DNA of 61,961 bases, counting the filler, from Deltaproteobacteria bacterium (GTDB taxonomy: Bacteria > CG2-30-53-67): the NCBI GenBank assembly GCA_013151235.1. It is 3 parts of 3 records of this genome, joined end to end, with 100 filler letters (N's around TTAATTAATTAA, not from the genome) between each part and the next. Parts side by side here need not be neighbours in the genome. Positions count along the whole stretch, not along the records: positions 47,881 to 61,961 come from JAADIO010000070.1; 2 more parts are not named here. The stretch is one strand, 5' to 3'. This document shows, one piece after another, positions 46,707 to 50,702 of this stretch. Each line of letters opens with the position of its first letter. Position 1 is the first letter of the stretch. The notes beneath the pieces are model-generated. The model did not search any database. It was not told the DNA's origin and saw nothing but the letters and a program-made list of their open reading frames with translations. The position numbers and the translations under genes were made by a program.

Positions 46707-46728
46707 AACATTGTACCAGGAGGAATGA

Positions 46729-47780
46729 ATGGGACTTTTCAACAAAAAGACGCGGCTCATGAGTCTTTCCAGCGGCGCCGGCTGAGCCTGCAAACTCAGT
46801 CCTTCGGACCTGGCCCAAGTTCTGGGACAGCTGCCCAAAATCGATGATCCCAATGTTCTGATCGGGAGCAACACCGCCGACGATTGTGCCGTTTATCGCA
46901 TCAACGATCACCAGGCCCTGGTACAGACCGTCGACTATTTCACCCCGGTAGTGGACGACCCCTTCCGGTACGGGGAAATTGCGGCCGCCAACGCCCTCTC
47001 CGATATTTACGCCATGGGGTGTAAACCATTAATCGCACTCAACATCATCGGATTCCCAGGGAACCTCCCCATGGGAATCATGGCAAAAATTCTCCAGGGA
47101 GGGGCATCCAAAGCGGCCGAGGCGGGAATTCCCATTGTCGGGGGCCACACCATCAACGACCGTGAACCCAAATACGGCCTTGTCGTCACGGCCATCGCAA
47201 AGATCGAAGAGATCCTGACCAACGCCGGAGCAGAAGTGGGCGACGAGCTGGTCCTGACTAAGCCACTGGGATCGGGAATCGGGATCACTGCAACAAAAGC
47301 CGGGGCCGGAGGAGAGGCACTGGTGGAAGAAATCACCAGCCTCATGTCGACGTTGAACAAAGATGCAGCAACGGCCATAAAATCCGTCTCCCCCCATGCC
47401 GTAACCGACGTAACCGGATTCGGTCTTTTAGGACACCTCCATGAGATGACGGCGGCCTCGAAAGTCGGCGCCGAAATCCTGTTTGATCAGGTGCCGCTGC
47501 TTCCCTCGCTTCCGGACCTGGCCCGGAAAGGATATATCCCCGGCGGAACCAGGACCAATCTGAAATTTCTCGATGGGGACGTTCTCTGGGAAGAGGGAGT
47601 CTCCGAGATCGACCGTCTCATTCTCTGCGATGCACAGACTTCGGGAGGCCTTCTAATCTCCGTTCATCCTGGGGAAAGTGATCAGCTGATCAAAGAATTA
47701 CAGAAGGTGGGAGCCCTCGCCTCCCACCGGATCGGAACCATTATTGACGATCCTTCGGGAAAGATCCGGGTTCGCTCAAA
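46729..47780 (+). CDS. selD: Selenide,water dikinase, selenocysteine-containing (UGA at 46783-46785); 3' end at the contig break
   Basis: AGGAGG then MGLFNKKTRLMSLSSGAG-UGA-ACKL...DDCAVY...QTVDYFTP, in frame with ANALSDIYAM, GGHT, TDVTGFGLLGH and DAQTSGGLL. Confidence 0.95.
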
Positions 47781-47880
47781 NNNNNNNNNNNNNNNNNNNN
47801 NNNNNNNNNNNNNNNNNNNNNNNNTTAATTAATTAANNNNNNNNNNNNNNNNNNNNNNNNNNNNNNNNNNNNNNNNNNNN
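47781..47880. other. Assembly spacer
   Basis: N run containing TTAATTAATTAA. Confidence 0.97.
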
Positions 47881-47932: not shown

Positions 47933-47961
47933 TTGACTCTTCCGGGTTTCTTCAATATATT
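47933..47961 (+). promoter_or_regulatory. sigma70 promoter of the zinc-ribbon cassette
   Basis: TTGACT-17-TATATT. Confidence 0.6.
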
Positions 47962-48018: not shown

Positions 48019-48228
48019 ATGCCCTTTTACGAATATTCCTGTTCTGCATGTGGTGAAATTTTTGAGATCCTCCAGAGACTCGGCGCTTCGGCCGAGGGGG
48101 TGCAGTGCCCGAAGTGTGGCCAGGGTGATTGCACAAAACTGATGTCCGCTTCAACAATTCATGGATCCTGCGGTGATGGACTCACGCAGGGAGGCGGCGG
48201 CTGTGTTCCCCGTGGTGGGTTTTCGTGA
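48019..48228 (+). CDS. FmdB-family zinc-ribbon protein; the terminal UGA may be Sec (extension to 48237 or beyond)
   Basis: MPFYEYSCSACGEIFE...CPKCG...KLMS motif, and a Gly/Cys tail ending GGFS-UGA-GS-UGA followed by a hairpin. Confidence 0.88.
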   Translation: MPFYEYSCSACGEIFEILQRLGASAEGVQCPKCGQGDCTKLMSASTIHGSCGDGLTQGGGGCVPRGGFS

Positions 48229-48264
48229 GGGAGTTGATCCCTGCCGTCGGCAGGAGTAGCCATT

Positions 48265-48420
48265 ATGAATGAAATCTGGGTCTGGGTCATTCTGACCGTT
48301 TTTATTGCTTTGCTCGGCCTTCTCTCCTACAAGGGGGGCGGGTGAGGCTGGAAGAAAGTTCCCCCGGCGGGGGAATCAAGAGAAAACTGCCGTAAAAAGC
48401 ATCCCGGTCGATCTGCGTAA
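48265..48420 (+). CDS. Small single-pass membrane protein, candidate selenoprotein (UGA at 48343-48345)
   Basis: AGGAG at 48252-56. MNEIWVWVILTVFIALLGLLSYKGGG-UGA-GWKKVPPAGESRENCRKKHPGRSA-TAA, with a 7-bp hairpin after the UGA. It is 26 aa if UGA is a stop. Confidence 0.55.
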
Positions 48421-48527: not shown

Positions 48528-50702
48528 TCAGTGAACAATCTCGGAGAGTTTTTGCAGGACCTGCGGGTCGAAATGGACGTTGGCGAGGTTTTGCATTTCT
48601 TGCAGGGCGGCTTTTTCGGAGAAGGGCTTCCGCCATGCCCGATTGGAAGTCATGGAGACGAAGGTGTCTGCAACGCAAAGGATTCGGGCCGGCAGGGGGA
48701 TCTGGTCCCCTACCAGACCGTAGGGGTAACCGGATCCGTTTAATTTTTCATGATGTTGCAGGACCGTATTTTTGACCTCTTCTTCCTCGGTCGCCAGGGC
48801 ATCCAGGATCTTCCAGCTGAAGAAGGGATGGCGCCGGATGATGGCGGTCTCCTCTTCGGAGAGCTTCCCTTTTTTATTGTACAGTTCACTCCGGATAGCG
48901 ATCTTTCCGATATCATGCAGCCGGGCGGAGAGGATGAGCCTTTCGGTCTCCTGTGCTGTCAGCTTCATCCTTTTTGCAAGATTTTCCGTATACCGGGCAA
49001 CACGCTCAGAATGGCCGTTGTGGAATGTGTCCTTGGCTTCCAATACCATGGCCAGCGAAGCAAGCGCTGTTTTAGAGAATCTGTTCTGAATTTCTTCGAA
49101 GCGGAGCCCTTCCTTGAGAAAATCAGTCAGGTGAGCACTTAATGGGAGGATTTTCCGTAAGTCCTCTTCCGTGAAGGTTCCTCCGTCCGTTTTGTTTGAG
49201 AGGTGAATCACCCCCAGAGTTTTCCCATCCATCCGCAGGGGGATCGACAGGAAAGATCCGTTTTTGTAGTCTTTGTAAAGATTCTTGTGAACGGCGGGGA
49301 TGGATTCTATGGTTTCCGCCACAACCGGTTTTCCTCCTGCAGCAACCCAGCCGGTCACTGTTTTGTCCGCCGGAACCCGGGTATTCTTAATCAATTCGGT
49401 GTAGTTCCCGAAACCGCAGGCCGCCCGGATAACAAACTGGCCGGTGCCGGGTTCCGCAAGGAGGAGGGAGCCTTTCTCTGCATGGAGGGTCTCCATGGCG
49501 ACTTCCACAATCAGCTCAATCAGTCGTCCCATATTGAAAACGGAATGAATTGTGCGGGTGACCCGGTTTAAATCGAGTTGCTGTGTAAGCGCCTCGGGTT
49601 CCGCTGCACGAGGATCCTGTTGCGGATATTGGGTGACCTGGTCCCCCCCCTGCTCCCGGGCGGTCTGCAGGGCCTCTTCCATGGAATGAATCAGGGCCAT
49701 CTTGTCCTTCGCATCAAAGGGAAAGGTAACCAACCCCGCACTGATGCTGATCCGTACGGATCGCTCTCCCGTTTCATCCTGAAAGAGGTGACGACTGATG
49801 GTTTCCCGCAGCCGGTCGGCGAAAACCAATCCGCCCTTCCGGTCGGTTTCCGTCAGGATCAAAGCAAATCGATCTTCGCCGTACCGGCAGACGGTATCGA
49901 TCTGCCGGATCTGATCCATAAGTATGGTGCTGATTTCACGGAGTGTTTGTTCACCTTTGAGATGTCCACACTGCCTGACATATTCGTCCCAATGGTCCAT
50001 TTCCATCAGGAGGAGGGACATGGGATTTTTCCGACGTTTCGCTCGTCCGATCTCCCGGTCCAATTGTTCATGGAACTGCAGGAGATTTGCCTGTCCCGGA
50101 AGGTTGTGCAGGGGAACAGCGGTGTCTTCCTGCCCATTGGTTTCATAATCCCGGAAGAGTGCTTCGGACTGTATCATGAGCAGCCAGAGGAGTTTTGCGG
50201 CATCTTCCGAAAAGGAATTCGTTTCCTTGCTGAAGAGTTGCAGGGTTCCGATAATGTTGTTGCTTGCATAGATCGGCACGGAGATCATCGAGGCGGCATC
50301 GGCATAAGTCAGGCACCGGTTCACTAAGTCGTCGCTGCCGCAGGGAACAAAGAAGGTCTTCCCGCTCTGCATACACCATTCTACAAAAAGGTTCCCCTGT
50401 GTCAGGGGTCCTGCAATCTCCTGAGAAAATCCTCGAATAATGAAGGGTCTGACCATATCGAGGTCGTTGTTCCGCAGGTAGAGCAGGGCCCGGTCATAGG
50501 GGATCATTTCGCTGACCAGGTCACAAAGAACATGCAGGGAAACCTTGAACTCCATGTTCAGGTTGGAGATCATGCCCGCCTTCAGCAGGATGTTGATCTC
50601 CTGGAATTTTCTGGAAGCAAAGTCCTGACTGATTTCCGGGGAGATGTCGAGCATATATTTCCGGGCAATCGGATCTTTGATAAATCGTCCGGTGTCAGAC
50701 AT
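48528..50702 (-). CDS. GAF - degenerate GGDEF - GAF - HD-GYP cyclic-dinucleotide signalling protein
   Basis: Two GAF domains. GGDEF domain has RQID and YGEDRF. HD-GYP domain has GHSERV, LHDIGK, HHEKLNGSGYP and VAD. Confidence 0.9.
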   Translation of the reverse strand: MSDTGRFIKDPIARKYMLDISPEISQDFASRKFQEINILLKAGMISNLNMEFKVSLHVLCDLVSEMIPYDRALLYLRNNDLDMVRPFIIRGFSQEIAGPLTQGNLFVEWCMQSGKTFFVPCGSDDLVNRCLTYADAASMISVPIYASNNIIGTLQLFSKETNSFSEDAAKLLWLLMIQSEALFRDYETNGQEDTAVPLHNLPGQANLLQFHEQLDREIGRAKRRKNPMSLLLMEMDHWDEYVRQCGHLKGEQTLREISTILMDQIRQIDTVCRYGEDRFALILTETDRKGGLVFADRLRETISRHLFQDETGERSVRISISAGLVTFPFDAKDKMALIHSMEEALQTAREQGGDQVTQYPQQDPRAAEPEALTQQLDLNRVTRTIHSVFNMGRLIELIVEVAMETLHAEKGSLLLAEPGTGQFVIRAACGFGNYTELIKNTRVPADKTVTGWVAAGGKPVVAETIESIPAVHKNLYKDYKNGSFLSIPLRMDGKTLGVIHLSNKTDGGTFTEEDLRKILPLSAHLTDFLKEGLRFEEIQNRFSKTALASLAMVLEAKDTFHNGHSERVARYTENLAKRMKLTAQETERLILSARLHDIGKIAIRSELYNKKGKLSEEETAIIRRHPFFSWKILDALATEEEEVKNTVLQHHEKLNGSGYPYGLVGDQIPLPARILCVADTFVSMTSNRAWRKPFSEKAALQEMQNLANVHFDPQVLQKLSEIVH

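Follow-up and report, generated by a model that had tools for sequence, protein, structure and literature searches.

Two candidate very small selenoproteins, an FmdB-type zinc ribbon and a membrane micropeptide, in a bacterial cassette with SECIS-like hairpins

Organization of the locus

The window analysed here is a stretch of 61,961 nucleotides (nt), filler included, from Deltaproteobacteria bacterium CG2-30-53-67 (assembly GCA_013151235.1), which joins three parts of three records end to end. Near the start of its last part (JAADIO010000070.1) lies a cassette of two short genes coding for an FmdB-type zinc-ribbon protein and a single-pass membrane micropeptide (Table 1). An earlier note on this DNA had described the cassette as two tiny selenoproteins, each with a hairpin resembling a bacterial selenocysteine insertion sequence (SECIS). 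This headline is favoured by the comparative evidence, namely the conservation of the UGA codons, the hairpins, the downstream frame and, in the peptide family, the exchange of cysteine (Cys) and selenocysteine (Sec, U). The coordinates given at the time were correct throughout: on the plus strand, the frame from the ATG at 48019 to the TAA at 48418-48420 is interrupted solely by the TGA codons at 48226, 48235 and 48343, and both hairpins, the AGGAG motif and the second ATG at 48265 lie where they had been placed.

The first open reading frame (ORF) belongs to the FmdB family according to both TIGR02605 (57.3 bits, cut-off 31.3) and PF09723 (55.7 bits, cut-off 34.4), and all four zinc-knuckle residues of its translation (C8, C11, C30, C33) are Cys. 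Its 3' end reads GGFS, TGA (48226), GGG, AGT, TGA (48235). The micropeptide ORF, hydrophobic overall, runs from its ATG over 26 codons to a KGGG motif directly followed by the TGA at 48343. In both cases a hairpin follows at short distance: the loop of hairpin 1 starts 17 nt past the end of TGA 48226, with its first base at +21 (counted from the U of UGA), and the loop of hairpin 2 starts 20 nt past the end of TGA 48343, with its first base at +24. Both hairpins pass the SECIS-like criteria detailed below. A T-run on the plus strand is absent 3' of either one, as had been stated before, so that neither has the make-up of an intrinsic terminator in this direction. Taken alone, however, the window proves little, since its folds are no better than those of shuffled sequences and an Rfam search (E up to 10) returned neither SECIS nor any other relevant family; the case therefore rests on comparative data.

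Table 1. Features of the cassette and its surroundings in the window
Feature	Position	Strand	Remarks
Sec-type selD	46723..47780		on neighbouring contig piece; in-frame TGA 46783 (...GAG-U-ACK...)
Promoter-like site TTGACT-17-TATATT	47933..47961	+	consensus match only, 10/12; upstream of cassette
FmdB-type zinc-ribbon gene	48019..48237	+	PF09723 and TIGR02605; proposed 72 aa (amino acids) with the end GGFS-U-GS; proposed real stop TGA 48235-48237
Proposed Sec codon 1, UGA	48226..48228	+	residue 70 of the FmdB protein; always TGA, 37/37
SECIS-like hairpin 1, cctgcc-GTC-ggcagg	48240..48254	+	stem of 6 base pairs (bp), loop GUC, -8.8 kcal/mol
Shine-Dalgarno-like AGGAG for micropeptide ORF	48252..48256	+	read from sequence; overlaps 3' arm of hairpin 1
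Single-pass membrane micropeptide gene	48265..48420	+	proposed 51 aa: 26 aa, Sec, 24-aa charged tail with Cys; stop TAA 48418-48420
Proposed Sec codon 2, UGA	48343..48345	+	residue 27 of the micropeptide; TGA in 8/8 of window clade and in wider branches
SECIS-like hairpin 2, ttccccc-GGC-gggggaa	48359..48375	+	7 bp stem, loop GGC, -12.0 kcal/mol with G-U closing pair
GGDEF-GAF-HD-GYP signalling protein gene	48528..50702	-	724 aa; convergent

Conservation among close relatives

Relatives were identified as metagenome-assembled genomes by scanning species-representative genomes with the FmdB protein of the window, which yielded 14 loci; three of these are close, with identities of 65-83%. In the phylum of these relatives, 7 of 13 genomes carry the micropeptide, and each match to the read-through peptide contains exactly one in-frame TGA. 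Among the non-carriers, four also have no detectable FmdB gene though selA is present, and a fifth (G008) has a different FmdB type. The window and the seven relatives form what we call the window clade (eight copies), with the gene order Lon, LysR (divergent), FmdB, peptide and the convergent GGDEF-GAF-HD-GYP gene.

Within this clade the architecture of both gene ends is strictly kept. All eight FmdB genes end with F-[S/T]-TGA, followed by two codons and a further stop (TGA in seven copies, TAG in one), and all eight small ORFs consist of exactly 26 codons before their TGA. The stops of the extended small ORFs vary (four TGA, two TAG, two TAA), and the tail between TGA and stop has a Cys in seven of the eight copies (TGC in five and TGT in two, with CGT in the remaining one). 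The spacer between the FmdB gene and the peptide gene ranges from 38 to 155 nt.

The distance between hairpin 2 and the plus-strand TGA is fixed in 8/8 copies, and RNAalifold on these sequences kept all five predicted pairs, two of them with compensatory UA-to-CG changes. The covariation that had been proposed as a check is thus found for hairpin 2 but not for hairpin 1, where RNAalifold across phyla gave no consensus because the alignment set the hairpins out of register; hairpins were consequently scored singly.

The FmdB subfamily with an invariant TGA

Beyond the window clade, FmdB genes were detected at the DNA level in 249 of 251 Desulfobacterota-like genomes, and the in-frame stops recorded for the 150 matches listed are either one TGA or none, never TAA or TAG. 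Thirty of these loci were read: 26 encode proteins ending F-[S/T], all 26 with TGA, which is followed by one codon in 13 genes and by two codons in the other 13 before a second stop of any kind (TGA 13, TAA 8, TAG 5). Subfamily genes from other phyla (L006, L011, L014) likewise stop at TGA. Altogether, the subfamily is characterized by the ending C-x(3-8)-[G/R/A/S]-F-[S/T/G], its first stop is TGA in 37 of 37 members examined and never TAA or TAG, and in 34 of the 37 a second in-frame stop lies one or two codons further on. As a control we read 20 of the matches with no in-frame stop, which all belong to a paralogous FmdB subfamily with a Cys-rich tail and end with TAA (10), TAG (7) or TGA (3). 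This paralogous subfamily (L118-L137; L044, L057, L061, L068) is found in the same genomes and has a C-terminal C-x2-C-x4-5-C-x2-C-[H/K] cluster and mixed stops.

A profile of the read-through FmdB protein retrieved 15,596 matches from 1.84 billion representative proteins, and among the best 150 of them 92 end x-F-[S/T/G] with a Cys a few residues upstream. A word-based protein search with the read-through form gave five matches, all of 69 aa. In one Nitrospirae FmdB gene (L006, 3196-3290) the end reads GGG-TGA-GGA-TCC-TAG; it is followed by a hairpin with a GGU loop at +22, behind which lies a clear intrinsic terminator. The TGA of this gene aligns with the conserved tail Cys of other FmdB members, which may reflect a Cys/Sec pair within FmdB tails or an alignment artefact.

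The membrane micropeptide family

The wider peptide family was reached through a Desulfarculales locus (L005), where another kind of small membrane ORF lies downstream of the FmdB gene; it, too, ends with TGA, and a hairpin and a hydrophilic tail come after. A profile built from three small membrane ORFs of this kind matches in 114 of the 251 Desulfobacterota-like genomes. Of 116 peptide matches, 114 show a single TGA at the site and two are too short to reach it; TAA, TAG or a sense codon was found there in none. At the DNA level, 29 of 30 loci could be parsed and gave 27 distinct sequences, all with TGA at the proposed Sec site. The same profile has matches in 53 of 301 Nitrospirota-like genomes, again with TGA at the site in 12/12 loci read. 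In sum, the in-frame TGA is present in 47 of 47 peptide copies (8/8, 27/27 and 12/12 in the three groups). Strict use of TGA had been set beforehand as a point on which the selenoprotein proposal could fail, and neither at this site nor at the FmdB site (37/37) did we encounter TAA or TAG.

The sequence after the TGA is conserved as protein in the Desulfobacterota-like branch, whose consensus is ...ILPKLGIST-U-MK.SC.... A [S/A]-Cys motif follows in 26 of the 27 distinct sequences, with the Cys at U+5 in 24 of those 26. The Cys is encoded by TGC (18) or TGT (8) and the Ser by AGT (8), AGC (1), TCC (3), TCA (3) or TCG (3). Such switching between AGY and TCN codons points to selection on the amino acid rather than on the RNA, which argues that the sequence downstream of the TGA is translated. 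The final stops of these 27 genes are again mixed (TAG 11, TAA 10, TGA 6).

In 5.8 billion public proteins the peptide profile found 840 matches. Among the best 120 of these, 85 are 29-aa truncations annotated as "hypothetical protein". We examined 35 of the public homologues: 17 are complete and have Cys in precisely the position of the TGA (...GIST-C-MSGAC...), three are truncated and 15 (P0162, P0164, P0167 and 12 others) have Trp at this site, presumably because the gene caller of the source read TGA as Trp on these short contigs. The alternation of Cys and TGA at the peptide site is, as far as sequence comparison can tell, the classical signature of a Cys/Sec pair. The search for such alternation, suggested in the earlier note for both proteins, therefore had a positive outcome for the peptide family but not for the FmdB site, where no Cys homologue was found among the best 150 profile matches or by a tail-profile search in longer proteins.

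The position of the window-clade peptide in this family is suggested by hhalign, which aligned it to the two wider branches at 69% and 68% probability (E about 4.5e-5) and set U against U; it would thus be a divergent member. Some Nitrospirota-like tails (e.g. ...VPPKGPEDSKNCK) resemble those of the window clade (...VPPSGDPKDCPKK), and a profile of the window-clade peptide gave only noise in the 301 Nitrospirota-like genomes (E above 5e-4). No model for any peptide branch was found in Pfam or NCBIfam 20.0. Peptide genes that have no FmdB gene nearby have heterogeneous neighbours (secretin, SSB, DUF4147/MOFRL, DUF364 with ArsR, HD, epimerase, 3D domain), which offer no functional clue. In a single Desulfobacterota-like case (L082, 522-2050), the peptide gene is flanked on one side by a DUF364/DUF4213 gene labelled "putative heavy-metal chelation" and on the other by an ArsR-type regulator.

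Hairpins downstream of the TGA codons

Hairpins were scored with criteria that we take to be those of bSECISearch: the stem had to be perfect over 5 bp or more, the loop had to measure 3-8 nt, start between +17 and +38 and have G as its first or second base, and the energy had to be -7.5 kcal/mol or lower. A passing hairpin follows the FmdB TGA in 27 of 37 genes, and these comprise 21 distinct hairpin sequences, whose loops start between +20 and +26 and are mostly GUC or GGUC. After the peptide TGA, 16 of 35 sequences have a passing hairpin. For comparison, the final stops of the peptide genes are followed by one in 1/35 cases, and for ORFs with 150 aa or more that stop at TGA, taken from all the DNA analysed, the figure is 8/180.

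Gene linkage and selenium context

In the window clade, an FmdB gene with the TGA-containing end and a peptide gene lie within 1.5 kb of each other on the same strand, in either order, in all eight copies. By the same measure, such an FmdB gene accompanies the peptide gene at 9 of 29 Desulfobacterota-like and at none of 12 Nitrospirota-like peptide loci. Besides, a divergent LysR gene is located beside the cassette in five of seven relatives, and the two copies scored (L001, 1943-2842 on the minus strand; L026, 2048-2959 on the plus strand) reach 260.8 and 263.6 bits with NF040786, the "selenium metabolism-associated LysR" model (cut-off 250). The window counterpart of this gene would fall beyond the start of the contig.

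Concerning the Sec machinery, selB and selA are each present in 5/5 relatives tested, and tRNA-Sec scores above 70 bits in G001 and G003. A Sec-type selD, as the earlier note had reported, is present in the window and itself has an in-frame TGA (46783). It lies on a neighbouring contig piece: positions 47781-47880 are N runs around the spacer ttaattaattaa, and the window from 47881 on is a separate piece. Since the window consists of concatenated contigs, adjacency across 47781-47880 means nothing, and it was right to give the proximity of selD no weight. The hairpin after the selD TGA, judged by eye, has a UUC loop that does not start with G; possibly the SelB of this organism tolerates loops other than GGUC, or the RNA folds differently.

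Alternative explanations

Based on these data we regard the cassette as a probable pair of very small selenoproteins: a zinc ribbon of the FmdB type that closes with GGFS-U-GS, and a membrane selenopeptide of 51 aa, each accompanied by a SECIS-like hairpin of its own. For the membrane peptide the sequence evidence makes a selenoprotein very likely, and for the FmdB protein it still makes one probable. Several observations weigh against this interpretation. In the window, 60-nt folds around the hairpins compare with shuffles at z = +1.27 and -0.95, so that the hairpins alone are not unusual. In the clade, hairpin 1 lacks a perfect stem of 5 bp or more in L003 and stays below the energy cut-off in L026 and L029, and hairpin 2 has the loop GGC in the window and GUC or GGUC(A) in the seven relatives. 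The tail Cys of the peptide is replaced by Arg in L029, and the coding signature of the window-clade tail is weak (16, 11 and 19 differences by codon position in three independent pairs), unlike the strong third-position bias that the same kind of comparison reveals in both upstream ORFs. The tie of the window-clade peptide to the large family, which would lend it the Cys forms, is suggestive rather than firm, as the hhalign probabilities of 68-69% refer to a mostly membrane-helix sequence. At the FmdB site, the residues after the proposed Sec are few (one or two) and variable, the best 150 of the 15,596 profile matches include no Cys form F-[S/T]-C-x-x, and a search with the FmdB tail profile in the class of longer proteins, which excludes those of 23-73 aa, matched only a truncated form and no Cys homologue. 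Finally, selA is present in 233 of the 251 Desulfobacterota-like genomes, that is in 107 of 114 peptide carriers and 126 of 137 non-carriers, and since it is near-universal in this sample, co-occurrence with the Sec machinery is uninformative.

Several of these points would fit an alternative in which both TGA codons are ordinary stops, so that the FmdB protein closes with GGFS after 69 aa and the membrane peptide has 26 aa. In this case the hairpins would be conserved RNA elements with some other task, for example in transcript stabilisation, in protein binding, or in regulation through bound SelB without insertion. Public annotation gives exactly these truncated products, and the missing Cys homologue at the FmdB site, the weak coding signature of the window-clade tail and the unremarkable stability of the hairpins are all compatible with this explanation. 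Nevertheless, ordinary stops leave unexplained why 17 examined peptide homologues have Cys exactly at the TGA site and why Ser and Cys codons downstream of it switch synonymously (AGY/TCN, TGC/TGT). The same applies to the invariance of TGA at both sites, as all three stop codons occur at the final stops and in the paralogous FmdB subfamily, to the second in-frame stop one or two codons past the FmdB TGA (34/37), and to hairpins at a fixed distance in 27/37 genes as opposed to 8/180 controls. We therefore consider it unlikely that both TGA codons are ordinary stops.

A second alternative accepts the membrane peptide as the only selenoprotein and takes the FmdB TGA as a true stop, with hairpin 1 serving, for example, to control the downstream ribosome-binding site (RBS). 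In its favour, a Cys/Sec pair and a downstream coding signal are known just for the peptide family, and in the window the hairpin behind the FmdB gene indeed overlaps the AGGAG of the second ORF, as the earlier note had pointed out. It had also been suggested there that readthrough might couple translation of the second ORF to selenium supply. Sequestration of the RBS can be seen in the window, but the spacing between FmdB gene and RBS is not conserved in the relatives, so that such a selenium-coupled translation would be local at best. Against the peptide as the sole selenoprotein stand the FmdB gene of L006, which ends with TGA and a hairpin though no small ORF follows, the low number of Desulfobacterota-like FmdB loci with a small membrane ORF downstream (3/26), and once more the contrast between 37/37 TGA codons in this subfamily and the mixed stops of its paralogue. 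Altogether, a cassette with a single selenoprotein seems distinctly improbable to us.

Two further proposals have virtually no chance of being correct. A single 133-aa fusion containing three Sec, or a UxxU motif in the FmdB protein, which the earlier note had listed among the possible products and for which it speaks that both ORFs share one frame in the window, L002, L026, L028 and L029, is already refuted by the comparative data, because the frames differ in three of seven relatives (L001, L003, L027), the spacer varies in length, L003 has TAG and then TAA in frame, and the second FmdB stop, which is TAG in L003, is TAA or TAG in 13 of the 26 wider relatives. Likewise, hairpin 2 could be thought to be the terminator of the convergent minus-strand GGDEF/GAF/HD-GYP gene, as a terminator scan lists it on that strand with the tail CTTTCTTCCA, but it lies about 150 nt past the stop of this gene, the minus-strand T-run is absent in L003, L027 and L028, and the hairpin keeps its distance from the plus-strand TGA in the whole clade.

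Proposed mechanism

What is conserved at both sites are the UGA codons and the hairpins, and for the peptide family additionally the Cys/Sec pair and a translated tail. On this basis, we infer Sec insertion, membrane topology and function for a pair of genes that would form a two-gene operon, with both products made as very small selenoproteins through ordinary bacterial recoding by SelB and SECIS. The first gene would encode a cytoplasmic FmdB-type zinc ribbon with a Gly-rich tail that contains a conserved Cys and closes with ...GGFS-Sec-Gly-Ser. SelB and Sec-tRNA would read UGA 48226, aided by hairpin 1 just past the true stop at 48235, to give a protein of 72 aa with a "U-x-x-stop" C-terminus. 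The product of the second gene is predicted to be a single-pass membrane peptide composed of a short acidic N-terminus, one helix and Sec at the cytoplasmic end of the helix (...YKGGG-U). Here, hairpin 2, itself part of the coding sequence of the tail, would assist in the reading of UGA 48343, and translation would end at 48418 with a peptide of 51 aa. The 24 residues after Sec are basic and include one Cys; following the positive-inside rule, the tail and the Sec are predicted to face the cytoplasm. At this face, the Gly-rich C...U tail of the FmdB protein could meet the Sec and tail of the peptide.

For the function we can offer a guess, to be taken as tentative: a selenol/thiol redox pair or a metal/chalcogen-binding pair at the cytoplasmic membrane face, with C...U on one partner and U...C on the other, under control of a selenium-type LysR regulator. 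In broader terms, it is conceivable, though we would not rate it as likely, that the cassette represents a previously unseen selenium-dependent membrane module, widespread in anaerobes and LysR-controlled, in which a soluble zinc ribbon with a flexible C...U tail and the micro-selenoprotein at the inner membrane face operate together as a selenol/thiol relay or in metal/chalcogen hand-off. The decoding mechanism itself would be ordinary. As far as our searches reach, the two protein families would be new, and so would their small size, the linkage of their genes and the fact that annotation lacks them.

Relation to known selenoproteins and SECIS elements

In the SECIS of E. coli fdhF, the apical loop is GGUC and its G23 and U24 are contacted by SelB. 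The SECIS-like hairpins described here are similar in being short, with G(G)UC, GGU or GGA loops that start 19-28 nt from the U of UGA, and in L006 the loop has GU at +23/+24 as in fdhF. They differ from the canonical element in that hairpin 1 lies wholly past the proposed true stop and in their short stems (5-9 bp). With respect to the membrane peptide, a parallel may be seen in eukaryotic SELENOK and SELENOS, small proteins that cross the membrane once and have their Sec in a disordered, Gly-rich tail on the cytosolic side. Thus, small size, a single membrane pass and Sec on the cytosolic side would be shared features. In the bacterial peptide, by contrast, the Sec follows directly after the helix, with a Cys 5-15 residues further on, and kinship at the sequence level is not expected.

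C-terminal "star" selenoproteins were reportedly introduced in a paper by Haft and Tolstoy in 2025. They resemble the FmdB protein in that their Sec is located two to three residues from the true C-terminus, gene callers truncate them, and the SECIS is at or beyond the real stop. According to Table 1 of a 2026 review, they comprise the UXX-star families 1 and 2, a GUXX-star fusion and KCU-star (PMC13188914), which are glutaredoxin-like or otherwise unrelated, unlike the FmdB zinc ribbon with its ending F-[S/T]-U-x or F-[S/T]-U-x-x. In line with this difference, the UXX-star models NF041114, NF041211 and NF041212 gave no match to the read-through FmdB proteins at E up to 10; NF041211 matches other loci in G001, G004 and G005 and not the FmdB loci.

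FmdB selenoproteins as such have precedents. The Global Ocean Sampling study reports two sequences of the family (COG2331 / TIGR02605) with a CxxU motif next to 807 Cys homologues (Zhang & Gladyshev 2008, PMC2398784), and later reviews give the motif as U/CxxU or UxxU (PMC9312934, PMC13188914). Judging from the CxxU motif alone, the Sec of the ocean proteins would replace a zinc-knuckle Cys. Family and predicted Sec are thus common to both, but the cassette protein has all four knuckle Cys intact, its Sec would be at the far C-terminus, and a Cys counterpart was not found. In the portion of the literature searched, no FmdB selenoproteins other than the CxxU type from ocean metagenomes were found.

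The 2026 review counts 119 selenoprotein families and subfamilies, and its table holds nothing that resembles the membrane peptide and neither of the two families (PMC13188914). Among the selenoprotein models of Pfam and NCBIfam there is no match to either family, and neither is described in the searched portions of the literature (including PMC2398784, PMC9312934, PMC13188914, PMC12013277, PMC13326102 and PMC1794560), a scope outside of which the supplements and Haft & Tolstoy 2025 lie. One reason that both have been invisible so far is that gene callers cut the products at 69 aa and at 26-29 aa. In addition, homology-based finders would miss the FmdB part because they need a Cys form, which was not found so far; in this context, deep-Sep reports Cys homologues for all of its new families.

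If the proposal holds, the bacterial selenoproteome gains two families of very small proteins. The peptide family would span 114 of 251 Desulfobacterota-like and 53 of 301 Nitrospirota-like genomes sampled, and the FmdB family with C-terminal Sec would account for 26 of 30 FmdB loci read in the Desulfobacterota-like sample. The former would provide bacteria with an equivalent of small membrane selenoproteins, and the latter a second, C-terminal way of using Sec in FmdB zinc ribbons. Besides, the cassette points to a blind spot of annotation: products that are cut at UGA to 26-29 aa, or that lose two to three residues, escape gene callers, and pipelines based on Sec/Cys homology, which rely on Cys homologues, would miss them too. 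For the FmdB family, which has long gone unexplained, the link to a LysR regulator of the selenium-metabolism type opens a way to approach the function by experiment.

Neighbouring features

The convergent GGDEF-GAF-HD-GYP gene downstream of the cassette is syntenic with it in four relatives (including L001-L003) and partly seen in others. Upstream, the same promoter hexamers as in the window are visible in the relatives L001 and L002.

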